Shown: positions 26,829-56,217, counted from the first letter of the stretch. The stretch: 64,000 nt of DNA from an uncultured Alphaproteobacteria bacterium (GCA_964561475.1 CAZLPU010000007.1:15367-79366); one strand, 5' to 3'. Translations and numbers: made by a program. Notes: generated by a model not told the origin, from the letters alone.

Positions 26829-26836
26829 GATGTGGC

Positions 26837-31495: not shown

Positions 31496-32629
31496 ATGAA
31501 AATTCTTCTAACCGGCGGTGCGGGCTTTATCGGATCCGCGGTGGTGCGCCATCTGCTCACCCACACCGATCATCACGTGGTGACCGTGGATAAGCTGACC
31601 TATGCCGGGTCCCTGTCCACCCTGGATGAAGTACTGCCCAGCGACCGGCACGCTTTTGAGCAGGTCGATATCTGCGACCGGAAGGCTCTTGAACGGGTGT
31701 TCCGCGAGCATGAGCCCGACGGGGTGATGCATCTCGCAGCGGAGTCCCATGTGGACCGGTCCATCGACGGTCCGTCCACGTTTATCGAGACCAATGTCAC
31801 CGGCACATTCACTTTGTTGGACGTAGCGCTGCGCCACTGGCAGGAGCTGGACGAGGGCCGTCAGAAGGCGTTCCGGTTCCACCATGTTTCCACCGATGAG
31901 GTGTATGGCGCTCTTGGAGCGGAAGGGATGTTTACTGAGGAAACACCCTACGCGCCCAACTCACCCTATGCTGCGAGCAAGGCCGCGTCGGATCACCTGG
32001 TGCGGGCTTGGTGGAAAACCTACGGTCTGCCCGTCGTCATCAGCAATTGTTCCAATAATTACGGACCCTATCAGTTCCCTGAGAAACTGATCCCCCTTGC
32101 GATCCTCAAGGCAGTGCGGGGCGAGGCCATTCCGGTCTATGGAAAGGGTGACAATATCCGCGATTGGCTCCATGTCGAGGACCATGCCCGGGCCCTGGTG
32201 CTGATTTTCACGCAAGGAGTCGTGGGCGAAAAATACAATGTGGGCGGCGAATGCGAACTGACCAATCTGGACATGGTGGAACGCCTTTGTCGGCTCGTGG
32301 ATGAGCGTTGCCCCGCCCTGGATCAGGGTCCCCGCACGGGCCTGATCACCTTTGTCTCTGATCGTCCGGGCCATGATTTCCGTTATGCGATCGAGACGGA
32401 CCATATCCGCGCCACTCTGGGTTGGCAGCCGGAACGCACCATTGATGAAGGGCTGGCCCAGACCGTCGACTGGTACCTCAACAATGGCGACTGGATCGAA
32501 AAAATTCGAGCCGAGCGGTATGACGGCCAGCGGCTCGGTCTGGGCGCCGGTGGAGCCTCCACTGGACATGAGGCCGCTCATTCCTCTCCCCGGTCTTTGC
32601 GGGGCGAGAGCCCGAAGGCGGTAGCATGA
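31496..32629 (+). CDS. rmlB: dTDP-glucose 4,6-dehydratase.
   Basis: [21 protein letters not shown] is the Rossmann motif. HVSTDEVYG and [15 protein letters not shown] give the catalytic YxxxK, followed by [18 protein letters not shown]. Confidence 0.92.
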
Positions 32630-33546
32630 AAATCCTGGTTCTGGGCAGAAGCGGCCAGGTGGCCCAGGCTCTTCAGCAGGCTGATTGGCCCCAGGACATG
32701 AGTGTCCAGGCCGCGGGACGGCCCGAGGGAGACATCACCCGCTGGCCCGCCATGGCCCGTGTCTTTGAGGACATCTGCCCGGATCTGGTGGTCAATGCCG
32801 CCGCCTATACGGCTGTGGATCAGGCGGAAACCGATGCTCACGAGGCTAGGGCGGGCAATGTCATCGGTCCGGCCATCATTGCTCAGGCCTGCGATCTTCA
32901 CGGCATACCTTTGATCCATCTGTCGACGGATTACATCTTTGATGGCTGCAAGCAGGAACCCTACCGGGAAGACGACACGCCAAATCCCCAGAATGTCTAC
33001 GGCCTGACCAAATGGCACGGCGAAGAGGCGGTCGCCGCCACCTTGGAACGCCATGTCACCCTGCGGACGTCCTGGGTCTATAGTGCGGGCGGCAGCAACT
33101 TTGTACGGACCATGCTGCGGCTGGGTGCGGAACGGGACCGTCTGTCCGTTGTCGATGACCAGACCGGAGCGCCCACCTTCGCGCCGGATATTGCCGCTGC
33201 AATCGTGGCTCTCTGTACCCGGATCAGGGACGGCGGCGATCCGTGGGGACCGATGCATTTCTGCGCGGCGGGGCACACCACCTGGTATGGCTTCGCCCAG
33301 GCGGTTTTTGAAAGCGCTTCGGGTCGGGAGGGCGCACCGCCGTTGCCCGCCCTCAGCCCCGTCGCCACCGCCGCGTTTCCAAGGCCCGCGTTCCGGCCCG
33401 CCAATTCGAGGCTTGATTGCAGCCGGTACGACCAGATGATCGGCGAGCCGAGGCGGACCTGGCAGGAGGGGCTTGCCGATTGTCTGGACCAGCTTTTGGG
33501 TCCAGTGCAGCCAAACGGTCAGTCGGTTATCGCCAAGGCCGGATAG
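32626..33546 (+). CDS. rmlD: dTDP-4-dehydrorhamnose reductase.
   Basis: [38 protein letters not shown] and YGLTKWHGE (YxxxK) are present. There is a 4-nt ATGA overlap with rmlB. Confidence 0.9.
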
Positions 33547-33796
33547 AGTGTGATCCGACCGGGTTGGATCACCAGCCGCGATCGCGGACTGGCGCCCCTG
33601 CGCCGCCCTGCGCCGCGTCAGCGGACGTGCTGCGCACCGTGAGCGACAAATCGCCATTGCCCATTCCGTTTGAACACAACCGACCTTAAAATCTGCACAC
33701 GGTCTTTGCCCCCTGTTAATCCTCCTCTGGATACGGATGAGAGCATGTCATCCGGCACCCCGCCACCCGCCGGGGTCGATCCAGAGGAGCGCAGCC

Positions 33797-34834
33797 ATGG
33801 CAAATCCGTCCGTCAAGAGATCTGACCCGCCGCTGGAGCCCCTTCTGGATGCCGCTGAAGCGGCCGCTTCCGGCGGTCAGCCCCGCGCCGCAACAGCGCC
33901 CTCCCTGGCCCTGCTCCTGCCCACTCTGAATGCGGCACCCCATCTTGATGCGTTTCTGCCTGCGCTGGAGCGCCAGAACCGCCGGTGGAACAGGTTTCTG
34001 GTGATCGATTCCGGCTCCCGGGACGGCACAGTGGAGCGTTTGTCCGCCTTCGGCGCGGAGGTGGTCTCCATCCCCCAGTCGGAATTCAATCATGGCGGCA
34101 CCCGGCGCCGGGGTGTGGAAGCCCTGAAGGATCATGAAATCATCGTCTGTCTGACTCAGGATGCGATCCTTGCGGAGGAAGACAGTCTCGACCGCCTTGT
34201 GGCGCCCTTTGAGGATGAGCGGGTGGGGATGACCTATGCCCGCCAGCTTCCCCGGCCCGAGGCCCGGGGGATCGAGCGTCATGCGCGGCTGTTCAACTAT
34301 CCGGGTATGGATCAGGGCCACGAACTGCGCCGCCTCGCCGATCGGGAGCGGCTGGGCATCAAGACCGTGTTCTGCTCCAATTCCTGTGCCGCCTATCGCC
34401 GGAGTGCCCTGATGGAAGTCGGCAACTTTCCGGAGGATGCCGTCTTCGCCGAAGATCAGACCGTATCCGGACGGATGATCCTGCGGGGATGGTCCATGGC
34501 CTACTGCGCGGATGCGCCGGTGATCCATTCCCATGATTATACCGTTTCGGAGGATTTCAAGCGGTCCTTCGATGTGGGCGTGTTCCATGCGCGCAACCCC
34601 TGGCTTTGGGAAGTTTTTGGCACCGCCGAAGGGGAGGGGCTGCGCTATGTCCGTTCGGAACTTGATTATCTGCGCCGCCATGAGCCTCTGTCGATTCCCG
34701 GCGCGGTCGTCCGTACGGCCGCCAAATATGCGGGATACCGTCTTGGCCGCTTGGAGCGGCGGATGTCCGCTGCCCTCAAGGCCCGCCTCAGTATGGCGGG
34801 CTATTACTGGCGCCGGCAAATGACCGAGGAGTGA
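33797..34834 (+). CDS. Glycosyltransferase family 2 (rhamnosyltransferase-like).
   Basis: LALLLPTLNAAPHLDAFLPAL...FLVIDSGSRDGT is a GT-A N-terminal pattern, followed by the DxD-like TQDAIL. A GAGGAG RBS lies 6 nt upstream of the ATG at 33797. The gene is embedded between rmlD and rmlA. Confidence 0.75.
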   Translation: MANPSVKRSDPPLEPLLDAAEAAASGGQPRAATAPSLALLLPTLNAAPHLDAFLPALERQNRRWNRFLVIDSGSRDGTVERLSAFGAEVVSIPQSEFNHGGTRRRGVEALKDHEIIVCLTQDAILAEEDSLDRLVAPFEDERVGMTYARQLPRPEARGIERHARLFNYPGMDQGHELRRLADRERLGIKTVFCSNSCAAYRRSALMEVGNFPEDAVFAEDQTVSGRMILRGWSMAYCADAPVIHSHDYTVSEDFKRSFDVGVFHARNPWLWEVFGTAEGEGLRYVRSELDYLRRHEPLSIPGAVVRTAAKYAGYRLGRLERRMSAALKARLSMAGYYWRRQMTEE

Positions 34835-35093
34835 CAGTCTGTGGCGCAGGTCCCTCTAAAAGGCCATGTTTTCCCCGCCTGGAAGATGATAGCATTCTTA
34901 AAGTAAGATGGCCATGGGTCCGCGGTTTTTCCAATGGTGCTTGCGCTCAGGCCTGAATGACCAGGGCAACTTTGAAGACCGGGTTCAAGCTTTGTTTACC
35001 ATCTCCGGCCACACAGTTTGATAAGGGTCGTGAATGAGGACGCCTGTTCCGCAAAGCCATGGCGGTGCGGTCCGGGCGAGAGAGGTGAAGGCG

Positions 35094-36029
35094 ATGATTG
35101 ACAAGGGAATTATTCTGGCAGGCGGATCGGGCACGCGGCTCTATCCCGCCACCATTCCCGTGAGCAAGCAATTGCTGCCGGTCTACGACAAGCCCATGGT
35201 CTATTACCCCCTCACCACCCTGATGCTGGCCGGGATCCGCTCGGTGCTGATCATCACGCGGCCGGAGGAACAGCATCTGTTCAAGGCGGTTCTTGGGGAT
35301 GGATCCCAATGGGGCCTGTCCCTGTCCTATGTGGTCCAGGACGAGCCCAGGGGCATTGCCGAGGCTTTCATTATCGGTGAGGAGTTTATCGCTGGTGATC
35401 CGGTCTGCCTCATTCTGGGTGATAATATTTTCTACTCGGAGGGTTTGAGCCACCGGCTTCAGTCCGCCGCTCGTCTGGAGGACGGGGCCATCGTCTTTAC
35501 CCAGTGGGTGAATGACCCTGAGCGCTACGGCGTGGCGGAATTCGATGATCAGGGCCGGGTCCTGAGCATCGAGGAAAAGCCCGCTAAGCCGAAATCGAGC
35601 TATGCGGTCACAGGGCTGTACTTCTATGACGGGACGGTCAGTGCCCGGAGCCGGACATTGAAACCGTCAGCCCGTGGTGAGCTGGAAATCACGGATCTGA
35701 ACAGTCTGTATCTCGAGGACGGCACGTTGCGGGTCGAAATTCTCGGCCGGGGTGTGGCGTGGCTCGATACGGGCACCCATGATTCCCTGCTTGAGGCGTC
35801 AAACTTCGTTGCGTCCATCGAGCGACGCCAGGGTCTCCAGATCGCGAGCCCTGAGGAAATCGCATTCCGGATGAATTGGATCGACGGGGATCAGTTGGTG
35901 GCTTTGGCGCAGCCGCTCATGAAGACCGAGTACGGACAGTACCTGCACCGGCTGGCCACTGCGCCCCAGGCCCATGGGGTCGCCAATCCGACCGTGCCGT
36001 CCTTTCCCACCCTGGCTGCCGTCCGGTAG
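35094..36029 (+). CDS. rmlA: Glucose-1-phosphate thymidylyltransferase.
   Basis: [59 protein letters not shown] and [13 protein letters not shown] are present. Confidence 0.92.
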
Positions 36030-36134
36030 CGACGCGCGGGCCTTCCTTCCGCCTCTTGTTGAATGGGCCGCCGATTGCGGTGTGCCCAAACGAACCCGGC
36101 CGCCTTCCGCTGGCCTGACAGATTGTGGACCGCC

Positions 36135-37325
36135 ATGAGCAGACCCGACTTTCTCGTTTTCGGCGCACCTCTCATCGAACAGGCAGAGATTGACGAGGTC
36201 GTCGCGACCCTGCGCTCCGGCTGGCTGGGGACGGGTCCGAAGACGGCGCGTTTCGAAGAGGACTTTGCCCGGTACAAATACGGTGGAGCCGGGCTGGAGC
36301 GGGGTGCCGCCGCGGTCAGTTCCTGCACCGCCGCGCTTCACTTGTCCCTGTTATGTGCGGGCGTCGGCGACGGGGATGAGGTGATCACCACACCCCTGAC
36401 ATTCTGCAGTACAGTGAACACCATCCTCCATGCGGGTGCAAAACCGGTTCTGGCGGATGTGGACCCGCTGACCCAGAATATCGATCCTGCACGGATTGAG
36501 GAGCGGATCACACCGCGGACAAAGGCCATTCTTCCCGTGCATTTTGCGGGCCGCCTGTGCGATATGACCGCGATCATGGACATCGCCCGGCGCCATGGCC
36601 TGAAAGTGATCGAGGATTGCGCCCATGCCATCGAGACATTTGGTCCCGAGGGGCGGGCCGGCACCATCGGCGATTTCGGCTGCTTCAGTTTCTATGTGAC
36701 CAAAAATGTGGCTACCGGCGAGGGGGGCATGATCCTGGCCCGCGAGCCGGAGGATCTGGAAAAGGTTCGCCGCCTGCGCCTCCACGGGTTGAGCCGGGAT
36801 GCCTGGAACCGTTTCGGTAAGGAAGGTTACAAGCATTATCAGGTGACGGATCTTGGCTTCAAGTACAATCTGACGGACCTGCAGGCCGCTATCGGTCTCC
36901 ATCAGTTGCGCCGTGTGGAAGACTGCTGGACCAAGCGCCGGACCATCTGGCAGCGTTATGATCAGGCGCTTCAGGGCTATGGGTTCACCCGCCCGGCGCC
37001 GGACGCGCCCGGCACGCGCCACGCGTATCATCTCTACACGATCTTGATCGATGAAGTTGCCTGCGGCGTTGGCCGGGACTCCGTGCTTGAGGAAATGACC
37101 CGCCGCAATATCGGCGTGGGCGTCCATTATCTCAGCATTGCCGACCATCCCTTCTACCAGGATGCCCTGGGCATGGACCCGGCGGAGACACCCAATGCCA
37201 CCAGGATCGGGCGCCAAACCGTCAGTCTGCCCCTGTCCGCCAGAATGTCCCTTGAGGACGTTGAGGATGTGGTCTGGGCGGTGGACGATCTGTTCGGTGC
37301 CTCGCCAAGGGCGTTGGCCGTTTGA
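36135..37325 (+). CDS. DegT/DnrJ/EryC1/StrS-family PLP-dependent sugar aminotransferase.
   Basis: The N-terminus is FGAPLIEQAEIDEVVATLRSGWLGTGPKTARFEEDFA, followed by SSCTAALHL. FSFYVTKNVATGEGG carries the PLP lysine context. Confidence 0.88.
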   Translation: MSRPDFLVFGAPLIEQAEIDEVVATLRSGWLGTGPKTARFEEDFARYKYGGAGLERGAAAVSSCTAALHLSLLCAGVGDGDEVITTPLTFCSTVNTILHAGAKPVLADVDPLTQNIDPARIEERITPRTKAILPVHFAGRLCDMTAIMDIARRHGLKVIEDCAHAIETFGPEGRAGTIGDFGCFSFYVTKNVATGEGGMILAREPEDLEKVRRLRLHGLSRDAWNRFGKEGYKHYQVTDLGFKYNLTDLQAAIGLHQLRRVEDCWTKRRTIWQRYDQALQGYGFTRPAPDAPGTRHAYHLYTILIDEVACGVGRDSVLEEMTRRNIGVGVHYLSIADHPFYQDALGMDPAETPNATRIGRQTVSLPLSARMSLEDVEDVVWAVDDLFGASPRALAV

Positions 37326-37392
37326 TCGGCTGGGCTGAGACAGTGTCACCGAGAGAAAATCAGTAAACGGCTCATCAGAAAGACGCAGCGCC

Positions 37393-38085
37393 ATGGCTTG
37401 GGACTATCGCAACTGGGTGATCCGGCGGATCCACGATCGGGCCGTGGAAGAAGCCGCGCGCCGTCATTTCAGTGGACGCCTTATTGACATCGGTTGCGGC
37501 ACCAAACCCTACAAGACCATGATGGCACCGGTCGTGGAAAGCCATACCGGTGTGGACCACGACGGCTGCATTCACGATCACTCCGCCATCGATCTCGTGG
37601 GCAGCGCCTATGAAATTCCGTGTGATGACGGGCAATTCGATTCTGCGCTGTGTACGGCGGTTCTCGAACACCTGGAGGAACCTGAATTGGCTCTCCGGGA
37701 GTGCTTCCGGGTTCTCAAGCCAGGGGGTGCTGCTCTTTATACCGTTCCCTTTATTTGGCACATCCACGAAGCGCCCCGGGATTTTTACCGGTTCAGTGAG
37801 TTCGGCCTGCGCCATCTGTTCGAGAAAACGGGCTTCGAGGCGGTCGAGATCCAGCCCTTGTCCGGCTTCTGGATCACGTTTGCCACCCTGTTCACCTATT
37901 CGATCAGCCGTCTGAACCGGGGGCCACTGCGCTACATCCCGATCATTCCGGCCTTGTCGACTTTTATTCAGGGTACAGCCTGGCTGATCAACCGGGCGGA
38001 TCGAAGCCATGAATGGACCTGGATGTATCTGGTGACCGCCCGCAAGCCGGTGGCCGTCTCCGGCGATGTTCCGATTGCCGCATAA
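37393..38085 (+). CDS. Class I SAM-dependent methyltransferase.
   Basis: LIDIGCGTKPY is motif I, followed by FDSALCTAVLEHLEEP and LKPGGAAL. The C-terminal stretch is hydrophobic. Confidence 0.75.
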   Translation: MAWDYRNWVIRRIHDRAVEEAARRHFSGRLIDIGCGTKPYKTMMAPVVESHTGVDHDGCIHDHSAIDLVGSAYEIPCDDGQFDSALCTAVLEHLEEPELALRECFRVLKPGGAALYTVPFIWHIHEAPRDFYRFSEFGLRHLFEKTGFEAVEIQPLSGFWITFATLFTYSISRLNRGPLRYIPIIPALSTFIQGTAWLINRADRSHEWTWMYLVTARKPVAVSGDVPIAA

Positions 38086-38204
38086 GTCAGGGGCATAATT
38101 CCGTAAGCGAATTGTCCAGAATCATTCATGGTGTTGAAAGACCGCCGGGGGCGGGATGGCGAAATGTGGGGCGGGTTCGGTTACTCTTTCGGAGGGCTCG
38201 GTCC

Positions 38205-40322
38205 ATGAGCGGTATTGCGGGTTTCATCCATCTGGGCGCAGGCCGGATTGACAGCTACAGGCTTGCCACCATGACCGGTGCCATGGCTCATCGCGGTCCT
38301 GACGATGAGGGCTTTGTGGCCATGGACACTCCGTCGGGGCGCTGTCTGCCTTTGAGCGGTACCGGGACAATCCCTTCGGTGCGCCGTCGGCTTGTGCCCC
38401 TTTCGTCTCCCGGTCCCATGGCGCGGGTCGGACTTGCGCACCGGGACAATGCCCTGTCGGAACCATCGGAGGCGGCCCATCAGCCTTTTCTGTCCACGGA
38501 CCGGATGGTGTCTGTCGTCTCTGACGGTGAGATCCACAACGCAGCCGATTTGCGTCGGGACCTGGAGCGCAAGGGCCAGGCCTTCCGGACCAGGAGTAGT
38601 GCGGAAGTCATCCTTGTGGCCTACCGTGTGTGGGGTCCGGATTGTTTTGCCCGGTTCAACGGATCCTGGGCGATTGCCCTGTTCGACGCGGCGCAGAACA
38701 CCCTCATACTCAGCCGGGACCGGGTGGGGCAGAAGCCCTTGTTCTGGACCCGGATGGGTGAGGTGATCTATTTTGCGTCGGAAATCAAGGGTCTGCTGGC
38801 CCTGCCTGACGTGGGCGCAAAGCGTGGCCTTAATCGGGAAGCAGCCGCGCGCTGGCTTGGTCTGGGCGTCCGGGATTGTGGCCGGGCAACCTTCCTTGAG
38901 GGGATCGAGCGGGTGCCGGCAGGCACGGCGGGGCCCGTGAACAAGAGTTTTCCGTATTCCCTGGAGCGCTACTGGTCGTTGCCCCGTCGGCGGCTGCGTG
39001 CACGGGACATCAGCGTGTCGGATGCGGCGGACCGGTTGCGCAATCTCCTGTCGGATGCGGTGAAACTGCGCCTGCCCTGCGATGGCGCCATGGCGGTGGA
39101 GTTGAGCGGTGGTCTGGATACGGCCAGTCTCGTTGCGCTCAGCACCCGCGCGTCAGGCAGTGGTGTCACCACGTACACGGTAAAACACAATGCGGAAGAC
39201 CATCAATCGGGACAGTGTGGGGAGGAATTTCTTGCCCGGCAGGTGGCGGAGCGTTGGCGTACGGATTACCGGGTCCTGGTTCCGGGACCCTTGGGTTTCT
39301 GGCGTCATGCCGGGGCGTTCTCTCAGTTGCAGGATGAGCCCTATCATGGGCCCGGACTGTTTTCGCGGCAGGTATTATGGAGCCAGATGCGGGGGCAGGG
39401 CACAAGAGCGCTCATGACAGCGACGGGGGCGGATGAGATCTTCGCCGGTCAGATGCGTCATATTCAGTATGCCCTGGTCAGCATGATGCGCGGCGGCCGG
39501 ATGGGTGATCTTGCTGGCACCGTGATGGGCACCTCGAGCCTCTCCGATCCCGGGCGCGGCATGCGCCATACGTTCCAGGGCCTGTTGCGGGCCGCCGCCG
39601 TGGCTGCGGGGCGTCCGGATCCCTTCGCAGGCCGGTCATCCCTTGGCCGCCGATCAGGCGGCGGAGCATCAGCGGCCGGAAACGGAGTTGAGGCTTTCCA
39701 GTCGGTGCTGGCGGATCTGCGGCCCAGGCGGATCAATCCGTTCCGCGCCGCTGGGCTGGAGCGGGCACTGATCCAGGACATGAACGTCACCAGCATGCCG
39801 GGTTGGCTGGCCGCGATGGATCAGGGCGCCATGGGCGTGCCACTGGCCTTGCGTATGCCCATGCTTGATCCAAAGGTGCTTGATTTCGTCTTTACCCTGC
39901 CTGTTGCCTATTTGATCCGCGGCGGCTGGACCGGTTGGATCCTGCGCAAGGCCATGGAGCCGCTTCTGCCCGAGGCGACCGTGTGGCGGCGGCGGAGTTC
40001 GGTCCCAGGCACGTCCCGCGGGATTTCCCGGGACGGCTTCATGCGCCAGTCCCGACCCTATATCGATCTGCTCATCGAGCAAGGCGATGTGCCCTGGTTG
40101 GACAAACGCAAGGCAGAATCCGTCTACGGAGATTGGAAGGCGGTGTCTTTCCTGCTCTGGTATGAGCGGGTGATCAACGGCAACGATGCCCTGTTCCAGC
40201 GCATCGAGGCCCTGGCGGACCGTCAGTATGAGGCGGAAGGCCGCAAGGATGCCACCGGCCCGTTCGGCGCCTTCCGTCCAGCCTATCTCGAAGAAAGGGT
40301 TGAGACCGCCCAGGCCGCCTGA
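38205..40322 (+). CDS. Asparagine synthetase B-like amidotransferase homologue with Ser in place of the N-terminal nucleophile Cys.
   Basis: A GGAGGG RBS precedes the ATG at 38205. The N-terminus is MSGIAGFI (canonical form MCGI.G), followed by HRGPDDEG. The PP-loop is AVELSGGLDTASLVAL (SGGxDS-type). Confidence 0.8.
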   Translation: MSGIAGFIHLGAGRIDSYRLATMTGAMAHRGPDDEGFVAMDTPSGRCLPLSGTGTIPSVRRRLVPLSSPGPMARVGLAHRDNALSEPSEAAHQPFLSTDRMVSVVSDGEIHNAADLRRDLERKGQAFRTRSSAEVILVAYRVWGPDCFARFNGSWAIALFDAAQNTLILSRDRVGQKPLFWTRMGEVIYFASEIKGLLALPDVGAKRGLNREAAARWLGLGVRDCGRATFLEGIERVPAGTAGPVNKSFPYSLERYWSLPRRRLRARDISVSDAADRLRNLLSDAVKLRLPCDGAMAVELSGGLDTASLVALSTRASGSGVTTYTVKHNAEDHQSGQCGEEFLARQVAERWRTDYRVLVPGPLGFWRHAGAFSQLQDEPYHGPGLFSRQVLWSQMRGQGTRALMTATGADEIFAGQMRHIQYALVSMMRGGRMGDLAGTVMGTSSLSDPGRGMRHTFQGLLRAAAVAAGRPDPFAGRSSLGRRSGGGASAAGNGVEAFQSVLADLRPRRINPFRAAGLERALIQDMNVTSMPGWLAAMDQGAMGVPLALRMPMLDPKVLDFVFTLPVAYLIRGGWTGWILRKAMEPLLPEATVWRRRSSVPGTSRGISRDGFMRQSRPYIDLLIEQGDVPWLDKRKAESVYGDWKAVSFLLWYERVINGNDALFQRIEALADRQYEAEGRKDATGPFGAFRPAYLEERVETAQAA

Positions 40323-40427
40323 GACAGGTCATCGCGCCAGGTTCAAGGTGACCTAGGGCCACCCAGGTCCGCCCGGATCTTCCATACCCGTCATTGCGAC
40401 CGGATTTTCGTTCAGGGGAATTTCATC

Positions 40428-41621
40428 ATGACTGGTCCTTGCGTTCTTCACAGTACTGATATCTGGCTGCCATCCACACAGACCTGGCTGCACAATCAAA
40501 TTCGTTTCCTCCCCAGGCGCATCAATACCCATGTGGTTTGCGGCCGGGGAGAGAACCTTGACCTGTTCCCGGTGGACAATCTCCATGTGCTCCGGGTGCA
40601 GAACCCGGCCCGGTTCATTCTGGAGAAAGCCTTGATCAGGGCAGGGATCGCCCGGGGGCTGCCGTTTGTCGGTGATATCGCGCGACGGGTGGGGGCACGG
40701 ATCATTCATTCCCATTTCGGTCCCGGCGCCTGGGCGGATGCTCCCGCTGCCGCCCGGGCCAAGGCCCTCCATGTGGCCACCTTTTATGGTTATGACATTG
40801 ATCAGTTGCCCAACCGGGATCCCGCCTGGGCGCTGCGCTATCAGGACCTGTTCCAGAGTGTGGACCGGGTGCTGTGCGAAGGCCCCCATATGGGCCGGAA
40901 ACTGGAGGCGAGGGGATGCCCCGCTGCAAAAATCCGTGTTCATCCCTTAGGGGTGGATCTGGACCGTCTCGCCTACCGTCCCCGGCTGAGGGCCCGGGGA
41001 GAGCCACTGCGGGTCTTGCTGGCCGCAAGCTTCCGGGAAAAGAAGGGTCTGCCCGACGCCATGCGTGCCCTGGGGCGCATCCGCAAGGAAGTGGTTCTGG
41101 AGATCACCGTGATCGGTGAGGCCCGGAACACGCCCGAGGATCAAAAGGAGAAAGCCCGCATTCTGGAGGCGGTCCTGGAGGCGGGCCTTGAGCGCCACGT
41201 GCGCTTTCTGGGTTATCAGTGCCATGACCGTCTCCATGAGGAAGCCGCCCGCCACCATGTCTTCCTCCAGCCCAGCCGCCACGCCTCCGATGGCGATTCC
41301 GAGGGCGGAGCACCGGTCACGCTCATTGAGATGGCCGCCACGGGGATGCCTATCGTCTCCACGGAGCATTGCGACATTCCCCAGGTCGTCCTCCACGGTC
41401 AGACCGGGCTTCTGGCCCCGGAAGGCGATGTGGATGCCCTGGCGGCCCAGCTTCTATGGTGTGCCCGCCGTCCCGATGCCTGGCGTCCCATGCTCGACGC
41501 CGGTCGGGTCCATATCGAACGCCAGTTCGACGCGGCGGGACAGGGGCTCGCCCTCGCCGATCTCTACGAAGACCTGCTCAACCCCCGCCCGGCCCAAACC
41601 TGGCTGCCCCAAGCGGCGTGA
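40428..41621 (+). CDS. Glycosyltransferase family 4 (WcaL-like).
   Basis: The C-terminal block VFLQPSRHASDGDSEGGAPVTLIEMAATGMPIVSTEHCDIPQVV matches the GT4 E..G....EAMA.G.PVV pattern. Confidence 0.8.
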   Translation: MTGPCVLHSTDIWLPSTQTWLHNQIRFLPRRINTHVVCGRGENLDLFPVDNLHVLRVQNPARFILEKALIRAGIARGLPFVGDIARRVGARIIHSHFGPGAWADAPAAARAKALHVATFYGYDIDQLPNRDPAWALRYQDLFQSVDRVLCEGPHMGRKLEARGCPAAKIRVHPLGVDLDRLAYRPRLRARGEPLRVLLAASFREKKGLPDAMRALGRIRKEVVLEITVIGEARNTPEDQKEKARILEAVLEAGLERHVRFLGYQCHDRLHEEAARHHVFLQPSRHASDGDSEGGAPVTLIEMAATGMPIVSTEHCDIPQVVLHGQTGLLAPEGDVDALAAQLLWCARRPDAWRPMLDAGRVHIERQFDAAGQGLALADLYEDLLNPRPAQTWLPQAA

Positions 41622-41654
41622 TACGACAACAAAGCCCGTAACAGTGGTCAGCCG

Positions 41655-43178
41655 TCAGCCACATTGGCCACTTGCAGGCCTCACTTTGGGAGTTGAGGGC
41701 GCCTTATTCAGGCGAAATTGCCTCCGGCCTTGCTTTGCACCATGTTCATAGAAGAGCTGCGTGATAGCCTTGTTTTCATTCTCGTTGATTTCGAGAACCT
41801 GCCAGCAATAGCGCCGAGTATCGCATTTGCTGCTGTCCACGGTTTCAGCCAAAATGAAGCCCTCAAGCTCCTGATGTTTATCTTCGTCAAAGTATTTGAC
41901 GACAAAGTAATCTGGATCTCGATGAGTCCCCACTTTGCGTATCATTGCGTTTTCGTCGATATATTTTGTGGGATTAATGGGAATCATTGAATTCGCAGCA
42001 AGCCTCCATGGTCCGCGCTCTTTGCCAATTTTCTTCGCAGCTTCAAAGTCCTTGGCTGTCCAAAATGGAGTTGGACACGACAAAGTAGCTGGAAATTTGC
42101 GCCGTCTAAGGGAAGTCTCGTAATTTGCCGCACCATCCTTGCTTATGGAGACTATCACATCAAAACCGTGGGTCTCTTCCATAGTATCTGGAGGACGGTT
42201 CTCGATCCGATCTGTACCCATACCCTCGATTCCAAGCAATTTGGCCAAATCATTTGTGTAAGTCGGGCGGGAGCTTGCATAGGTGACAATGCCGGTCACT
42301 GGTACACCGGGTAAATCATACCGGGAGGGAATCATTTTGAAGTCAGTTTGAAGTTCTCCCTCAATACGGTTAAGAATATGACCTGGAATGTCGGGATCAT
42401 GAACAATTTGTATCTTTTTATCAAATGGAAGATTATTTTTAAACGCAATCCAAAACACCTCCGCTTGTCGGCATAATTTAATCAAATCATTATTTGCTGT
42501 TGTCTTTGCGACGTCAAAAACCTTTTGTGTTTTCTCAAATATATCAATTTTTTGACCAGCATCCCCGTTAAAAAATGAGTGATGATCATCGACTATCTTT
42601 TGACACACATCAATAGCATTCCACTCACTCTGAGAAGCAGTTTTAACTGGCATCCGAACTTTAAAATAATATTCAGGGACAAGTCCCCGTTTCTCAGATC
42701 GAACAGGATACAAGTCATCCGGATTTGTCGATAGAACCCGATAAATTACACCTTGACCATTCAGACCAATATCTGCGCCAGTCATTTGCGGCAACGGTTT
42801 CTTGGCTTGATCCTTAAGCGAGCGTCTCCACTGGTCCAATGTGTTACTTACGACTTTATCGACCAAAATTTTGCATGGTGCGTTAGCTTCAACATTGAAG
42901 TAAATTGATACGCATTCGAGTACCGTCTGCGCAACACTGCTCACATAGCTTTGAACTCTCGATTTATCGTTGATACTATGACGATACTCTACGATAATCT
43001 GGCTAATTATGTTTTTATGATTTATGTCATCTATCTCAAGAGTGACCTTTGTCGCGTCCACCTCATTTGGTGAAATGTCTTTCGAATGTGCCGTGGACGT
43101 GTATAAGGATATGGTCGCGGCTAAGCATACAAGCGAGAGCCTTTTGGCGACAGAGATTGATTGTAAGTGCGCGATCAT
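41655..43178 (-). CDS. Hypothetical exported protein (507 aa), family not recognised, encoded in low-GC DNA.
   Basis: This is the only long ORF in any frame across the region. The signal-peptide-like N-terminus is KRLSLVCLAATISLYTSTAHSKD. Codon choice is AT-rich, unlike all neighbours. The ATG overlaps the upstream ORF stop (ATGA). Confidence 0.6.
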   Translation of the reverse strand: MIAHLQSISVAKRLSLVCLAATISLYTSTAHSKDISPNEVDATKVTLEIDDINHKNIISQIIVEYRHSINDKSRVQSYVSSVAQTVLECVSIYFNVEANAPCKILVDKVVSNTLDQWRRSLKDQAKKPLPQMTGADIGLNGQGVIYRVLSTNPDDLYPVRSEKRGLVPEYYFKVRMPVKTASQSEWNAIDVCQKIVDDHHSFFNGDAGQKIDIFEKTQKVFDVAKTTANNDLIKLCRQAEVFWIAFKNNLPFDKKIQIVHDPDIPGHILNRIEGELQTDFKMIPSRYDLPGVPVTGIVTYASSRPTYTNDLAKLLGIEGMGTDRIENRPPDTMEETHGFDVIVSISKDGAANYETSLRRRKFPATLSCPTPFWTAKDFEAAKKIGKERGPWRLAANSMIPINPTKYIDENAMIRKVGTHRDPDYFVVKYFDEDKHQELEGFILAETVDSSKCDTRRYCWQVLEINENENKAITQLFYEHGAKQGRRQFRLNKAPSTPKVRPASGQCG

Positions 43179-44200
43179 TCCATAATCCCCGGTACGAGTA
43201 TCAGTGTACGAGTCGGTTCATGCCCCATCGAAGTGAGGCTTCGCTGCGGATGTGGGTAGGTCCGAACTGGGATATTTAAGCCAGTTGCCACAATACCCAA
43301 AGCATCACGAAGACAGCCTGGGCTCACTAATCTGTTTTCGCGAAGGATATATAGCCCAGGCTGCAGTATGAATGGTAATTTTTGGGCAAAGTCGAATGCT
43401 AGATTGTTCCATTCCGCGTGAGAAATGGTGTTAAAACTGATATGTGGTAGGATCTTCCGCAGATTCTTAAGTACTGTTGTGGACACCTGCAGATTTCCCT
43501 CTTTAATAAGTATGGTAATCCTTTCCGTGCTTAGCGGTAATAGATTACTGTCTTGATCCTGCGAGCAAGGCGCAGGTAGGCTTTCAGTCCATAAGGGCGT
43601 GGATTTGTCGTACACTCTATGGCCATATTGCTCGGTCGTCTCCGATCTATTCGGAATGTGTCCTATATTCCTGATCCTCCCGGCATCTGATGGTCGGCTT
43701 TTCTCATCGGTCATTGGCGCCTTTTTAGCGCCCTGCCCATTTTGGTCGGTATGAGATGCGGCAGTGGCTCGTAGTGCTTGGTCGAGAGCCTTATCCTGAT
43801 CCATCGCAGTTTCCTGCACAGACTCCGACGGGCCTCCGAAAATAAACGGAATGACAACCGCCAAAATAGTAAGGCAAAGCGCGAAGGCTTTATCAGGCGT
43901 CACCCATTCCCGAGGGTCCTTAAACCGCTTCCAGATATCTCTCAACGCCATTCAGGAGCCCTCTGATAAGCGCTTGACTCAACCTCTGCCGTGCATCGGC
44001 CACACGTGATGAGTGCGAAATAGACTCTGAGTTGTCGCTGATGCCACCGTTGAAATAAGTACTAACAGGACATTAACAAGCGCAACCTGACACTTGCGAG
44101 GAATGCCTGATAAATGGTCAAGGTTCTGAGATGGTTGTGTTTTGTGGTCTATGTGCAACAGACGCGTTGGCAATCGTATTGGGATTACCGTGGTTGCAGG
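41700..44200. other. Compositional island: about 2.5 kb of low-GC DNA in a high-GC background.
   Basis: Hand counts on 60-nt lines give 30% at 42961-43020, 35% at 42421-42480 and 42% at 44101-44160. The flanking line 41401-41460 gives 67%. GC rises gradually at both edges. Confidence 0.7.
43175..43951 (-). CDS. Hypothetical membrane-anchored protein (258 aa), family not recognised, encoded in low-GC DNA.
   Basis: A GAGGG RBS lies 8 nt upstream of the ATG. A short basic N-terminus is followed by one TM helix (AFALCLTILAVVIPFIFGG), a polar, probably disordered linker, and a ~130-aa C-terminal domain. Confidence 0.55.
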   Translation of the reverse strand: MALRDIWKRFKDPREWVTPDKAFALCLTILAVVIPFIFGGPSESVQETAMDQDKALDQALRATAASHTDQNGQGAKKAPMTDEKSRPSDAGRIRNIGHIPNRSETTEQYGHRVYDKSTPLWTESLPAPCSQDQDSNLLPLSTERITILIKEGNLQVSTTVLKNLRKILPHISFNTISHAEWNNLAFDFAQKLPFILQPGLYILRENRLVSPGCLRDALGIVATGLNIPVRTYPHPQRSLTSMGHEPTRTLILVPGIME

Positions 44201-44512
44201 CAGGAAGCTGAAGGCGTGGCCTCGTTCCACACGGTAGGAAGTTGGTCCAAAGCTGACTAGAAATTGCCGCACTTGGGGCGTCGGTTTGGCTCTATAAGGG
44301 CCTGACGGAAAAGTGACCCGGGCCGGAAGGGCTGGAAGCGGGCCTGGAGAGATGTGATGCCCGGCGCTTGGTCGATCTGTTCTGGGCCATGGTCTGGCGG
44401 TGACGCAGCCTTTCGTATCACGCTGGCTTGTCAGGCCGGGCACCGGTGTCCTTGTTGAACCATGCTGCTGACCTCGTTTTGGAGGAGTTTGACCGTGCCG
44501 ACTGAGTCCCCC

Positions 44513-45718
44513 ATGCAGCCCGCGGCCAAATCGGGCCTCAACGCCAGGCAATCGGGTAATGCCGAACATTCGCTGACCCCGGCCCTCATGCCGGACGGGG
44601 CGCGGGACCGGGTTCGGGCCTGGCTCAGCGGCGATGCTCTGCCCCTGTGGGCTGAAAAGGGTGTCGAACCCAACGGCGCCTTTCTGGAACAGCTCACCAC
44701 CGATGGCGCGCCGGATCCGGACGCGGTGCGGCGGATCCGGGTGCAGGCCCGGCAGGTCTATGTTTTTGCCCAAGCCACTCTGCTCGGCCTTGGTGATTGG
44801 CGGGATGAGGCGGCCCACGGTCTGGAATGGCTGGTGAAAAAGGGCTGGGATGAGAAGGACGGCGGTTTCTTCCACCACCTTAACGGCGACGGTACCGTGG
44901 CGAACGGGAAGAAAGATACCTACGACCACGCCTTCGTCCTGTTCGCCCTGGCCCACGCCAAGCTGGTCGATCCCCACGGCATTGCCGACACCTGGATCGG
45001 CAAGACCATGGAATACATCGAGCGGGATCTGACCGACGCCGATGCCCCGGGAGCCCTGGCCTTCCATGAGGGCGTGCCCCGGGTTCTGCCACGGCGCCAG
45101 AACCCGCACATGCACCTGACCGAAGCCTTTCTGGCGCTTCACAATGCAACGGGTGATTCGGCCTATCTGGAGCGGGCCGGCAAGCTTGTGGACCTGTTCC
45201 GGAGCCATTTCTTCCACAAGGAAACAGATACGCTGGCGGAATTTTTCACCGACGACTTCAAGCCGGTGGAGGGGGATCCGGGCCTCATCGTGGAGCCGGG
45301 ACACCATTTCGAATGGGTCTACCTCCTCGATGCCTATGCAGACGCCGCCCTCAAGGAGACCCTGCCCGAAGCGGAGGCCCTCTTTGCCGTGGCCCGGGCC
45401 CGGGGCATCGATCCGGTCTCCGGTCTGGTCTATGACGAGATCTGGCGGGACGGGGGCACCGCCAAGGAAACCAAGCGCATGTGGCCCCAGACGGAAGCCC
45501 TGCGCGCCCATGTGATTCGGGCCAAGGACGATTCCCTGCTGGTCTCCGCTGCGGAAGAATGGCTCGATCGGATTTTCCGCTATTATCTCGATCCGGCACC
45601 GGCCGGCACCTGGCGGGATGTCATGGGCGCAGATAACCGGCCCGTTGAAGGCAAGCCGATCCCCGCCAGCACCTTCTACCATGTGCTTTCAGCATTCAGT
45701 GCAGTGCTGGAGGCGTGA
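44513..45718 (+). CDS. AGE-family (N-acylglucosamine 2-epimerase superfamily) epimerase/isomerase, often annotated as mannose-6-phosphate isomerase.
   Basis: WLSGDALPLWAEKG, YDHAFVLFALAHA, NPHMHLTEAFLAL, EPGHHFEWVYLL and MWPQTEALRA are present. The start is uncertain (44462, 44513 or 44588). Confidence 0.8.
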   Translation: MQPAAKSGLNARQSGNAEHSLTPALMPDGARDRVRAWLSGDALPLWAEKGVEPNGAFLEQLTTDGAPDPDAVRRIRVQARQVYVFAQATLLGLGDWRDEAAHGLEWLVKKGWDEKDGGFFHHLNGDGTVANGKKDTYDHAFVLFALAHAKLVDPHGIADTWIGKTMEYIERDLTDADAPGALAFHEGVPRVLPRRQNPHMHLTEAFLALHNATGDSAYLERAGKLVDLFRSHFFHKETDTLAEFFTDDFKPVEGDPGLIVEPGHHFEWVYLLDAYADAALKETLPEAEALFAVARARGIDPVSGLVYDEIWRDGGTAKETKRMWPQTEALRAHVIRAKDDSLLVSAAEEWLDRIFRYYLDPAPAGTWRDVMGADNRPVEGKPIPASTFYHVLSAFSAVLEA

Positions 45719-45947
45719 CCCGCCCCGACGGGCATGGTAAATCCCTGCGCGACTGAAGGGGCCCATTCACGCGGCGCCCAATTCCCATGCCCCGGCCCAT
45801 CAAGCCCCGGTCCGATATGCGCTCTGGACACCCACTCCCATAACGAACAGCCCATCAGGCCCGTGTTTCCTGAGAGGCCCTTGTTTGAAGGGAGATTTGG
45901 TGTTTCCAGAAGGATCCGGGGCAATCGGTATCGAAAGCGAGGACAGG

Positions 45948-47657
45948 ATGAGCGACCAAAGCTCGGCCGCCCAAGTTGCCAGCGGCTCGACCGCCCATAA
46001 CGACGACATGGCCTCGGGCCGCCCGGCCCTGAAGGCCTGGAAGTCCCTTGAAGCCCACGCCGCGGAGTTGAGGGGCCAGTCGATTCTGAACCTGTTCGCC
46101 GAGGACGAGGGCCGGTTCGGCGCCATGAACGCCTCCACCTGCGGCATCCTGCTCGACTACTCCAAGACCAAGATGACCCCGGACACCATGGCCCTGCTTC
46201 TGGCCCTGGCCCGGGATGTGGATCTGGAGGGACGGCGCACGGAAATGGTCACCGGCGCGCCCATCAACGTCACGGAAAAGCGCTCCGTGCTGCACACGGC
46301 CCTGCGCCGCATGGACCGGGCACCGGTCACCGTGGGCGGGCGCAACGTGGTCGAGGATGTGGAGCGGGTGGTCACCCACATGTCCGGCTTCGTGGAGCGG
46401 GTCCATAGCGGGGCCTGGGCGGGCTACACGGAAAAGCGCATCACCGATATCGTGAATATCGGCATTGGCGGCTCCGATCTGGGTCCCCGGCTGTTGTGCG
46501 ATGCCCTCAAGCCCTACCACACCGGCGGCATCCGCCCCCATTTCGTGTCCAATGTCGATGGGGTCGACATCATGGACACCCTGGCGGGGCTCGATCCGGA
46601 AACGACCCTGTTCATTATTTCATCCAAGAGCTTCACCACCCAGGAAACCATGGCCAATGCCCGGTCGGCCCGGGCTTGGCTCGTGGACCGTCTGGGAGAT
46701 CAGGCGGCGGTGGCCAAGCATTTCGTGGCCGTCTCCACCAATCTCGAAGCGGTCAAGGAGTTCGGCATCGATCCGGACAACACCTTCGAGTTCTGGGACT
46801 GGGTCGGCGGGCGCTATTCCCTCTGGTCCGCGATCGGTCTGTCCATCGCGCTGACCCTGGGCATGGCCCATTTCGATGCCCTGCGCCGGGGTGCTTTTTC
46901 CATGGACCGCCACTTCATGGATACGCCCCTGGAGCAGAACCTGCCGGTGTTGCTGGCCCTGGTCGGCATCTGGCATGCGAATTTCCAGCACCACCGCACC
47001 CTGGCGGTCCTGCCCTACAGTGCCCGGCTCGGCCTTCTGCCGTCCTATCTCCAGCAGGCGGATATGGAGAGTAATGGCAAGAGCGTCACCCGGGACGGCG
47101 AGCCGGTGGGCTACCAGACCGCACCAGTTCTCTGGGGAGGCGTGGGCACCGATGTGCAGCATTCCTTCTTCCAGATGCTCCACCAGGGCACCCAGGTGGT
47201 GCCGTGCGAATTCATCGGCGTTTCCGAGCCGGATACGGGCGATGAGGCCCATCACCGTCTGCTGATGGCCAATTTCTTCGCCCAGACCGAGGCCCTGATG
47301 CGCGGGCGCACGGGCGCGGAAGCCCGGTCCCTGCTGACCGGCGGCGGTGAGGATCCGGCCCAGGCGGATGCCCTGGTGCCCCACACCACATTCCCCGGCG
47401 GACGGCCCAGCGTAACCCTGCTGATCGACAAGCTCAGCCCGGAGCGCATGGGGGCCCTCATCGCCCTTTATGAACACAAGATTTTCACCCAGGGCGTCAT
47501 CTGGGACGTGAATTCCTACGACCAGTTCGGGGTGGAGCTGGGCAAGAAGGTTGCCAAGCGCCTCCTGGAAGACGACGGCGTGTCGGACATGAGCGCATCG
47601 ACACGGGGTCTGGTGGAGGCCTACAACGGCCACTGCCGCGATCGGGACCGTATCTGA
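45948..47657 (+). CDS. pgi: Glucose-6-phosphate isomerase.
   Basis: DYSKTKMT, NIGIGGSDLGPRL, IISSKSFTTQETMANA, WDWVGGRYSLWSAIG, QQADMESNGKSV and GVELGK are present. An alternative start is at 46008. Confidence 0.92.
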   Translation: MSDQSSAAQVASGSTAHNDDMASGRPALKAWKSLEAHAAELRGQSILNLFAEDEGRFGAMNASTCGILLDYSKTKMTPDTMALLLALARDVDLEGRRTEMVTGAPINVTEKRSVLHTALRRMDRAPVTVGGRNVVEDVERVVTHMSGFVERVHSGAWAGYTEKRITDIVNIGIGGSDLGPRLLCDALKPYHTGGIRPHFVSNVDGVDIMDTLAGLDPETTLFIISSKSFTTQETMANARSARAWLVDRLGDQAAVAKHFVAVSTNLEAVKEFGIDPDNTFEFWDWVGGRYSLWSAIGLSIALTLGMAHFDALRRGAFSMDRHFMDTPLEQNLPVLLALVGIWHANFQHHRTLAVLPYSARLGLLPSYLQQADMESNGKSVTRDGEPVGYQTAPVLWGGVGTDVQHSFFQMLHQGTQVVPCEFIGVSEPDTGDEAHHRLLMANFFAQTEALMRGRTGAEARSLLTGGGEDPAQADALVPHTTFPGGRPSVTLLIDKLSPERMGALIALYEHKIFTQGVIWDVNSYDQFGVELGKKVAKRLLEDDGVSDMSASTRGLVEAYNGHCRDRDRI

Positions 47658-47948
47658 TCGCTTGGGAAAACCGGTACCGGCGGGGGTACCGGAAGCGGCC
47701 CGTTCCAAGAGGCCGCACACGGGAACAGGACACGGGGAAACAGTCGTAAATCATCCGGATGGATGTTTGGGGGATACTTCAGGGGGAGGCTTGGGCCTGC
47801 GCTCTCATGGTGCAGGGTCTTGTCCGGGCTGGAACGCCGATCAGTACTCTGATCAGCGATCGGGCCTGGGCGCGGGCAACGGGCCTGACCGTCCTTTATG
47901 AGTATGGGCTTGCATGAGGATGGGCCCCGCATTGGCATGGGTACACTG

Positions 47949-49067
47949 ATGACGATTTTTCCCGTTGTTCTTTCCGGCGGCGTCGGGTCGAGGCTCTGGC
48001 CCGCATCGCGCGAATCCAACCCCAAACAGCTCCATGCCATGGTCTCCCCACGGACCATGGTGCAGGAAACCGTGCTCCGCAGCCGCACGGCCATGTTGAG
48101 CAGCGGCGGCGCCGGTCAGTCGGGAACCAACGCCGCCCAGCCCATCGCCGATCCCATCGTGGTCTGCAATGTCCGCCACACGGGCGCCATCGAACAACAG
48201 CTTGCGGATATCGGCGTAACACCCCATGCGATCATTGCCGAACCCGTAGGCCGCAACACCGCGCCTGCGGCGGCCCTGGCGGCTGTGGTGGCCGCCCAGG
48301 AAGATCCCGAGGCCATCCTCATTCTTCTGCCTGCGGATCACCACATCACCAATACGGAAGCCTTCGGCACCGCCATGTCCCGGGCGGTCTCCCTGGCCCA
48401 GCAGGGTCTGGTGGTCACCTACGGTATCGTGCCCGACAGCCCGGAGACCGGTTACGGTTACATCCGCCGGGGTGAGCCGATGACCGACGTGCCGGACTCC
48501 TATTCCGTTTCCAGTTTTGTCGAAAAGCCTGACCGTGAAACGGCGGAGTCCTATGTCGCCTCGGGCGATTACTACTGGAACGGCGGCATCTTCACCGTGG
48601 GATGCAGCACCCTGGAAGGGGAGATGGACCGGTTCTGCCCGGACATCCTCGCCCATGCCCGCAAGGCCGTCGCCAAGGCGGACCGCAAGGGCCGGGTCAT
48701 TCTTCCCGACAGTGACGTTTTCGGTGCCTGTCCGTCGGATTCCATGGACTATGCCGTGATGGAGCGCACCGAGCGGGCCGCCGTGGTGGCCGCGGATATG
48801 GGTTGGAGCGATGTGGGCTCCTGGTCCGCGCTCCACGATGTGTCCGAACGGGATGAGCATGGCAATGTGCTCACGGGGGATGTGGTCGCCATCGACAGCG
48901 GCAACTGCCTCGTGCGCTCCCAGGACCGGCTGGTGGCCGTGGCGGGCGTGGAAAACCTGATCGTGGTGGAAACCCCCGATGCGATCCTGGTGACCACCCG
49001 GGACAAGGCCCAGAAGGTCAAGGATATCGTCAATACCCTGAAGAAAACCGGCCGCTCTGAGCTTTGA
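47949..49067 (+). CDS. manC: Mannose-1-phosphate guanylyltransferase (nucleotidyltransferase domain only, no C-terminal cupin isomerase domain).
   Basis: FPVVLSGGVGSRLWPASR is the GG.G.RLWP.SR signature, followed by EPVGRNTAPA, PADHHI, FVEKPD, YYWNGGIF and WSDVGSW. Confidence 0.85.
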   Translation: MTIFPVVLSGGVGSRLWPASRESNPKQLHAMVSPRTMVQETVLRSRTAMLSSGGAGQSGTNAAQPIADPIVVCNVRHTGAIEQQLADIGVTPHAIIAEPVGRNTAPAAALAAVVAAQEDPEAILILLPADHHITNTEAFGTAMSRAVSLAQQGLVVTYGIVPDSPETGYGYIRRGEPMTDVPDSYSVSSFVEKPDRETAESYVASGDYYWNGGIFTVGCSTLEGEMDRFCPDILAHARKAVAKADRKGRVILPDSDVFGACPSDSMDYAVMERTERAAVVAADMGWSDVGSWSALHDVSERDEHGNVLTGDVVAIDSGNCLVRSQDRLVAVAGVENLIVVETPDAILVTTRDKAQKVKDIVNTLKKTGRSEL

Positions 49068-55930: not shown

Positions 55931-56168
55931 AGCTTTGCCCTTTGCCCCAATTCCTTAAAATCGTACGAAAACGGAACGTTATTCGAAAACCGAAGGCGGC
56001 CGCGCGGTCCTGTCCGCACGCGCCTCATTCATGGCTCCAAACATATGCGCGGGCCATGAAGGGGGATGTGTTCTGCGTCACGGTCTGCCCGGCGACCGCT
56101 TCTTTTATTGGCCGTTTCGCATGACAGCTCACCACCCTGGTGGCGCCTTTTGAGACAGGGCCCTTGTG

Positions 56169-56217
56169 GATAAGGCCCTTTGAGATAAGACCCCTTGGAT
56201 AAGGTCCCCGGGATAAG
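56169..56217. repeat. Four direct repeats with a GATAAG core at 14-15 nt spacing.
   Basis: GATAAG occurs at 56169, 56184, 56198 and 56212. The flanks are similar (cttgtGGATAAGGccc / tttgaGATAAGAccc / cttGGATAAGGtcc / cgGGATAAGGcat). Confidence 0.75.

Follow-up and report, generated by a model that had tools for sequence, protein, structure and literature searches.

In a 64,000-nucleotide (nt) stretch of DNA from an uncultured Alphaproteobacteria bacterium (GCA_964561475.1, CAZLPU010000007.1:15367-79366; here called the window), we detected a segment of low guanine-plus-cytosine (GC) content at positions 41655-44200 that encodes two proteins of 258 and 507 amino acids (aa), named ORF258 and ORF507 after their open reading frames (ORFs). 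The segment is a real, lineage-specific insertion, and its two products are true ORFans, with nothing matching them among ~15 billion known or predicted proteins. Taken alone, insertion and ORFan status are held with high confidence. As the best explanation of the whole, we propose that a foreign piece of ~2.5 kb, derived from a donor with perhaps ~40-46% GC, recently entered the narrow gap that separates a GT4 glycosyltransferase gene from an AGE-family epimerase/isomerase gene, that it would form an ORFan operon encoding a pair of envelope proteins, and that this pair may be an accessory module. We give this explanation as a whole a probability of about one half.

Compositional limits of the segment

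The sequence from 41655 to 44200 has 46.1% GC against 62.6% in the remaining sequence of the window, and it is the lowest of all windows of 2,546 nt (mean 61.8%, standard deviation 3.0). In a maximum-likelihood fit with two change points (log-likelihood gain 90), the limits fell at 41730 and 44190; GC is 45.6% between them and 63.1% in the flanking sequence. The low-GC foreign segment so delimited (41730-44190, ~2.46 kb) appears in sliding-window composition as a single deep trough at ~41.6-44.3 kb, with minima of 37.5-38.8% GC in windows of 400-500 nt, and by tetranucleotide distance it deviates more than any other part of the window. No other compositional break in the 64 kb is as strong. 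A preliminary description of the window had called it the only sharp break, which is essentially right given one milder dip (51% GC at ~55.9-56.9 kb). The same description had put the drop at 30-42% GC against 65% by hand counts; the drop itself is confirmed by the fit, but its size had been exaggerated.

The milder dip, second-lowest of the window at ~51% GC, coincides with a ~940-nt non-coding gap (55931-56869). It is flanked on one side by a divergent 464-aa gene that Pfam does not match (54536-55930, minus strand) and on the other by an S9 peptidase gene (56870-59215, plus strand). The motif GATAAG(G/A)(C/T)CC occurs in four spaced copies at ~56170-56225, which could be a regulator-binding array.

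The codon usage of the two ORFs is also deviant. GC at third codon positions is 0.49 in ORF258 and 0.43 in ORF507, compared with 0.72-0.83 in host genes of the window, and codon adaptation is 0.397 and 0.434 for the two ORFs against 0.684 ± 0.052 in 33 host genes (z = -5.5 and -4.8 with these genes as reference). Both windowed GC and codon statistics differ strongly from the flanks, so that the island survives the check on which it had been made to depend, and the segment has the deviant base composition and codon usage of an islet. A de novo origin from resident DNA was rejected because the composition is foreign.

The insertion and its empty site in relatives

The gene order at the insert is GT4, insert, AGE, PGI and a ManC-type nucleotidyl transferase. 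On the left, the host GT4 glycosyltransferase (40428-41621, plus strand; Pfam) is convergent with ORF507 across a gap of 33 nt and is intact to its final residue, as its alignment with the orthologue of the relative L003 reaches 397/397. On the right, the host AGE-family epimerase/isomerase (44495-45718, plus strand; Pfam PF07221) has a GTG start, as in P0003 (407 aa). Nothing is on record for P0001 and P0003 on other contigs.

The window belongs to a metagenome-type assembly and the jump in GC is abrupt, as would be expected if a low-GC piece of another organism had been joined to the host by chimeric assembly or contamination. Against this, the left junction is contained in Logan contig L083 (SRR6462991), which equals positions 39391-42405 with 100% identity and runs from GT4 into ORF507, and the right junction in Logan contig L001 (SRR6462993), which equals 42677-44918 with 100% identity and runs from ORF507 and ORF258 into AGE. 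A further Logan contig, L002, corresponds to 42530-44141, and the sequence is identical across three sequencing runs. The piece also falls precisely between two genes that are intact and syntenic, within their intergenic spacer. An assembly chimera was rejected, and is effectively excluded, since both junctions are reproduced at full identity in independently assembled contigs of two runs.

The Logan contigs of the window's organism end within the most AT-rich part of the island (42406-42529).

We compared the locus with those of three relatives, namely L003 (JBHJGV010000005), L084 (GCA_964522525, from the same sample series) and L087 (GCA_964449455). The order AsnB-GT4-AGE-PGI-ManC is kept in L003 and L087, and L084 has in addition DegT and a methyltransferase upstream. 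In all three the gap between GT4 and AGE is only 82-190 bp, neither ORF is matched by tblastn, and no low-GC islet comparable to the insert is present in the locus. The comparison of presence and absence that had been suggested for the pair therefore shows it missing from the syntenic position, with conserved flanks around an empty site, in three relatives that are distant from the host (AGE 53-57% identical). The host lineage is poorly sampled, the best match of AGE among 5.8 billion protein clusters being 57% identical.

This closest known relative of the host (GCA_964522525, AGE 57%) shares its sample series (L084-L086; SRR6462993, SRR6462995) and has a syntenic locus that lacks the insert.

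The gene upstream of AGE differs in other genomes, being AsnB in L004 and NeuB in L088, so that the insertion site marks where a variable part of the locus meets a conserved one. Such a boundary would tolerate recombination, which may explain why the insert landed there. Mapping of the junctions to the base by alignment of the GT4-AGE spacers failed because the spacers of the relatives are too diverged. As for the earlier view of a recently acquired module, acquisition is borne out by foreign composition and the empty site; as the available relatives are distant, its recent date is read from the lack of amelioration.

Two coupled genes in one operon

The segment holds exactly two long ORFs, both on the minus strand. 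The first gene encodes ORF258 (43175-43951, 258 aa) and the second ORF507 (41655-43178, 507 aa), and the stop codon of the former overlaps the start codon of the latter in an ATGA at 43175-43178 (minus strand; tcat on the plus strand). Both the ORFs and the overlap had been described before and were recovered in our ORF calls. As read from the sequence, the overlap is one of translational coupling, and coupling would give matched (stoichiometric) synthesis of ORF258 and ORF507, which probably form a complex. The longest open frame in the island has 496 codons, and the maximum across 1000 shuffles is 228; with open frames so far above those of shuffles, the ORFs are real protein-coding genes, in the donor at any rate. 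The ATG of ORF258 is directly preceded by an in-frame TGA, with a Shine-Dalgarno (SD)-like AGAGGG 8 nt upstream, and that of ORF507 is preceded by an SD-like GGGGA inside the end of ORF258. Both products have the amino-acid composition of ordinary globular proteins and show no similarity to each other.

Both ORFs are intact, but the preliminary description needs correction at one end of the pair. The last ~25 codons of ORF507 (41655-41731, minus strand; …GRRQFRLNKAPSTPKVRPASGQCG) lie outside the change point, with 55-58% GC in 60-nt windows. They encode a basic, proline-rich coil, and AlphaFold2 likewise models a coil past residue 480. The native C-terminus of ORF507 may have been replaced or truncated through read-through into host-side sequence.

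Upstream of ORF258 lies a non-coding leader of ~300 nt (43952-44260, minus strand), presumably the promoter region of the operon, which is on the foreign side with 40-57% GC and contains neither a long ORF nor one that matches Pfam. A scan for promoters and terminators gave results no better than shuffles, and Rfam matched nothing in the island or in the whole window. We propose that the insert constitutes a complete operon in itself, whose two genes are translationally coupled, run on the strand opposite to the glycan genes of the host and come with a foreign leader of their own.

The same anatomy could be that of inert cargo, namely a recently captured piece of a larger foreign operon that entered by illegitimate recombination and whose ORFs are open for lack of time to decay, idle or unexpressed. 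The end of ORF507 past the compositional boundary, which suggests a truncated or fused gene, would agree with this, as would the lack of a promoter-like site upstream of ORF258, the codon usage very poorly adapted to the host, and the absence of mobility machinery and of significant end repeats. Most acquired ORFans, moreover, have no known function, and they are seldom found across a pangenome (PMC13012023). On the other side, both ORFs are complete from start to stop, coupled and preceded by SD-like motifs, the insert brings its own upstream leader, its sequence is identical in three sequencing runs, and the scan for sigma-70 sites was a simple one that was not made for alphaproteobacterial or foreign promoters. 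We regard inert cargo as a minority possibility, though one to be taken seriously.

Absence of homologues

Neither protein could be assigned to a family. In hidden Markov model (HMM) scans of both full proteins against Pfam, NCBIfam, PADLOC and PHROGs, nothing was found below E = 0.26; the best E-values in PHROGs were 0.26-0.48, and PADLOC-DB matched neither protein at E up to 1. Three fragments of ORF507 and the C-terminal domain of ORF258, searched against Pfam at E up to 10, gave only noise from scattered unrelated families (E of at least 0.03). A word-indexed search of 5.8 billion protein clusters returned only ORF258 and ORF507 themselves, and an exhaustive phmmer (HMMER) search of ORF507 against 1.84 billion representatives again found only itself. 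We found nothing meaningful for either protein among PDB sequences, and no match in 72,556 plasmids and 50,697 phage records (tblastn, blastn) or in JGI metagenome contigs and IMG/VR viral contigs. AlphaFold2 run without an alignment reached a mean predicted local distance difference test score (pLDDT) of 36 and 43; with no alignment for either protein, the models are unusable as whole folds, and the Foldseek hits obtained with them (TM-scores <0.2) were treated as meaningless noise. The earlier remark that neither protein carries a catalytic motif, a Walker box or a nuclease, protease or glycosyl-hydrolase signature is thus borne out by HMM, sequence and fold searches. With self matches only in comprehensive databases (for ORF258 by the word-indexed search), both proteins are ORFans.

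The segment is an ORFan-bearing islet and as such an instance of a familiar phenomenon, the import of AT-rich ORFans. Most ORFans are horizontally imported, often AT-rich and of unknown function (PMC13012023, PMC2718499; reviewed in PMC12315717), and they have been described as shorter than other genes (PMC3514957). Like the acquired ORFans and clusters of atypical genes described by Cortez et al. 2009 (PMC2718499) and uz-Zaman & Ochman 2026 (PMC13012023), the pair is AT-rich relative to its host, free of homologues and present as a small cluster absent from relatives, presumably from an unsampled mobile gene pool. Unlike these, ORF507 is long for an ORFan, the pair has no signature of an integrative element, and the host lineage is barely sampled.

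The case stands out only because the genes are long and well formed, the insertion is clean and even very deep databases returned nothing. The case is a clean one, with a sharply bounded, unameliorated insertion, an empty site in relatives and two independently assembled junctions, and the pair could be used as a test case for the origin of bacterial ORFans and for alignment-free structure prediction. If functional, the pair would represent two protein families that are new and that act in the envelope of Gram-negative bacteria. With no indication of function and an uncultured host, the immediate impact is modest; a specialist would not be surprised, and the route to the open question needs experiments on an uncultured host.

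Predicted location of the products in the envelope

Closer inspection of ORF258 showed an N-terminus of 21 residues of basic type followed by one strongly hydrophobic helix at residues ~19-40. Hydropathy peaks at 2.45 over residues 22-40, the sole region with Kyte-Doolittle 19-mers above 1.5, and AlphaFold2 models a helix at residues 19-38 with a pLDDT of ~70-78. The predicted transmembrane (TM) helix (residues ~22-40, AFALCLTILAVVIPFIFGG; coded at 43832-43888, minus strand) has a net positive flank on its N-terminal side and an acidic one on its C-terminal side, as read from the sequence. The acidic flank is followed by a second helix at residues 43-64, by a polar stretch at ~65-140 that AlphaFold2 models as coil with low confidence, and by a mixed alpha/beta domain of ~120 aa at the C-terminus. 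The plan of one N-terminal TM helix, polar linker and C-terminal domain had been recognised before, with the domain taken as ~130 aa. With one helix of TM grade (hydropathy, AlphaFold2) and a positive-inside flank, ORF258 looks like a bitopic inner-membrane protein with its N-terminus in and its C-terminus out, which would place the ~120-aa domain in the periplasm on a long flexible linker.

The short cytoplasmic N-terminus, single TM helix, long flexible periplasmic linker and small C-terminal alpha/beta domain predicted for ORF258 are all features of bitopic envelope proteins of the TonB/TolA type. Unlike these, ORF258 matches neither TonB_C nor TolA nor any other Pfam or NCBIfam family (full protein; for Pfam also residues 120-258), and ExbBD or TolQR partners are absent nearby. 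The resemblance is one of topology only.

ORF507 begins with a signal-peptide-like sequence (residues 1-32; 43083-43178, minus strand; read by eye from the translation), in which K12 and R13 are followed by LSLVCLAATISLY, then by TSTAHS and by KD. Judged by eye and hydropathy as an n/h/c layout, its h-region of 13 residues is moderately hydrophobic and below TM grade, and hydropathy detected no other hydrophobic segment of TM grade in the protein. It contains 9 cysteines, 8 of them past the putative cleavage site, and no internal repeats were found. The signal-peptide-like start and the several cysteines of the preliminary description are therefore present. ORF507 looks like a Sec-exported protein that would be released as a soluble, disulfide-capable periplasmic protein of ~54 kDa in its mature form.

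Together, these predictions make it likely that both products face the periplasm, ORF258 tethered and ORF507 soluble, and the two may act jointly at the periplasmic face of the inner membrane.

Junction repeats and delivery

No tRNA gene is present in the window, no integrase, transposase or phage domain was detected in any large ORF of the 64 kb, and the four unused frames of 41622-44461 contain no decayed mobility genes by Pfam. The earlier statement that such genes are missing from the vicinity of the pair can thus be extended to all large ORFs of the window and to the unused frames of the island. With no integrase or transposase, no tRNA target and no significant flanking repeats, the islet has none of the usual marks of mobility.

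Two kinds of repeat were found near the compositional change points. The 9-nt sequence GAAATTGCC occurs as a direct repeat at 41714-41722 and, as a perfect match, at 44260-44268 (both plus strand), and could be a target-site duplication or a microhomology. Inside it lies an imperfect inverted repeat (15/19) with its left arm at 41732-41750 (plus strand), 9 nt from the direct repeat, and its right arm at 44235-44253 (minus strand), 6 nt from it. These repeats recall a non-autonomous transposable cassette, in which passenger genes between inverted repeats of insertion sequence (IS) type are moved in trans by the transposase of another locus and leave a 9-bp target duplication. Such mobile insertion cassettes are documented (PMC4337579 and PMC2266710 mention them), and like IS-derived cassettes the segment has passenger genes but no transposase of its own, a 9-bp candidate for a target duplication just outside each arm, and imperfect terminal inverted repeats, both repeat types being close to the change points. 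Unlike in these cassettes, the repeats are not statistically significant, as the score of the direct repeat is reached by 14% of shuffles and that of the inverted repeat by 15%; the arms do not abut the direct repeat, being separated from it by unrelated spacers of 9 and 6 nt; and the cognate IS is not seen in the 64 kb, where neither a transposase nor another occurrence of the 11-nt core GCTTTGSACCA (at up to 1 mismatch) was found. ORF507 would, moreover, have to read through the left repeat. We consider a transposable cassette distinctly unlikely; it concerns the delivery of the pair and not its function. The junction repeats are a lead, not a finding.

Possible function of the pair

The insert is surrounded by a surface-polysaccharide locus of capsule or O-antigen type at ~17.8-49 kb (~31 kb) in a host of ~62% GC, an uncultured alphaproteobacterium. 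The locus includes group-4-capsule-like YjbH/YjbF genes, Wza-type export genes and several GT4 and GT2 transferases, together with dTDP-sugar genes, a DegT aminotransferase, a methyltransferase and an AsnB-like amidotransferase. Mosaicism with imported genes of low GC is classic for glycan loci, as in the wzx, wzy and transferase genes of O-antigen and capsule loci. The pair might accordingly be a serotype-specific glycan module with a horizontally acquired periplasmic activity that modifies or trims the polymer or controls its chain length. Its position between GT4 and the sugar-nucleotide genes speaks for this, as does the predicted periplasmic orientation of both products, since polymers are modified in that compartment. 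Like low-GC serotype genes, the insert is foreign low-GC DNA in a polysaccharide cluster, at a junction between variable and conserved parts that is also seen in relatives.

Unlike those genes, the pair includes neither a multi-span membrane protein nor a transferase domain and has the opposite orientation. It is antisense to the whole run of glycan genes on the plus strand (31496-49067), so that there is no co-orientation or co-transcription with the glycan operon, the pair lying on the minus strand and being convergent with GT4. We found no recognisable transferase, polymerase, flippase, lyase or hydrolase domain and no signal of a glycosyltransferase, acyl- or pyruvyl-transferase, Wzx, Wzy, Wzz or other family by Pfam and NCBIfam, nor with the fragments searched against Pfam at E up to 10, and the same complete locus occurs without the pair in the three relatives. 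A glycan module is therefore unlikely. We favour an accessory module over a glycan step because of the antisense, self-contained layout with its own foreign leader, the lack of any glycan-enzyme signal and the complete loci without the pair in relatives; the pair would have no part in the assembly of the polysaccharide encoded around it.

Within the proposed accessory module, a tentative guess at function is an envelope module of the moron or exclusion type from the mobile gene pool, which would alter or guard the envelope. The surface modification, phage exclusion and toxin/partner pair considered in the preliminary description are likewise guesses. Like prophage morons and the cassettes for lysogenic conversion or superinfection exclusion, the pair is a small autonomous unit of atypical composition with membrane and periplasmic products (predicted here). 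It differs from them in that no prophage or phage gene occurs within the 64 kb, no PHROG is matched and the flanking promoter/terminator pair was not detected; neither a prophage location nor similarity to phage proteins was found with PHROGs, by tblastn against the 50,697 phage records or in viral contigs.

Variable islets typically carry genes for defence and competition, and a small, foreign, self-contained unit of two tightly coupled genes could also be a conflict system, in the form of a toxin/immunity pair that acts on the envelope or of a new pair for defence against phages. Neither protein matches a PADLOC-DB model of a known defence system, however, and PHROG and Pfam matches are equally absent. 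Export signals on both proteins are unlike the typical combination of a secreted effector and a periplasmic immunity partner, and the 64 kb contain no secretion-system or defence-island neighbours, so that we consider a conflict system very unlikely.

Several points weigh against our explanation of a recently inserted ORFan operon that encodes an envelope pair. Function-bearing evidence of any kind is absent, and a homologue, a motif and a usable structure model are all lacking. The homologue search of ORF258 used a word-indexed database, the exhaustive search having covered ORF507. A promoter-like site for the operon was not found, as a simple scan of the minus strand, not designed for alphaproteobacterial or foreign promoters, detected no sigma-70-like site upstream of ORF258. 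The host-like GC of the last ~25 codons of ORF507 indicates that this gene is possibly truncated or fused at the junction. The export signals of both proteins rest on hydropathy and reading by eye, the relatives with the empty site are distant, and nothing in the window accounts for delivery, since a prophage, an integrase, a transposase, a tRNA and significant terminal repeats are all missing.

A more far-reaching version of our explanation is that the pair is the first sighted example of a two-component envelope system, composed of a membrane-anchored periplasmic adaptor and a secreted 54-kDa partner of a new fold, which would confer phage exclusion or glycan remodelling and move as a minimal cassette without transposase. 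We consider this version speculative and improbable.

Other genes of the window

The AsnB-like amidotransferase upstream of GT4 (38013-40322) probably has its true start at residue 65 (~38205). Its N-terminus then reads MSGIAGF in the window, MSGIAGY in L084 (4678-6711) and MGAIAGY in L003 (6458-8542) and L087 (4438-6522). The N-terminal nucleophile cysteine of class-II glutamine amidotransferases is thus replaced by serine or glycine in all four genomes, which suggests a conserved enzyme that is glutaminase-inactive or mechanistically altered.

Also in the polysaccharide locus, two neighbouring genes on the minus strand (24336-25679 and 25692-26927) encode proteins of 447 and 411 aa that lack Pfam matches, and the second has the second-lowest codon adaptation among the tested host genes. 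The two could be divergent Wzy/Wzx-type membrane proteins.

Outside this locus, a single ORF of 1448 aa (2535-6881) combines a HAD hydrolase, a trehalose-phosphatase and a GH65 phosphorylase that is complete with its N-terminal, catalytic and C-terminal domains. Such a triple fusion is unusual in disaccharide metabolism. A protein of 1074 aa (11075-14299) contains RTX calcium-binding repeats, a proline-rich repeat stretch, two stretches matched by CBM2 (cellulose-binding domain), and a PA14 domain, and is probably a secreted adhesin or glycan-binding protein.

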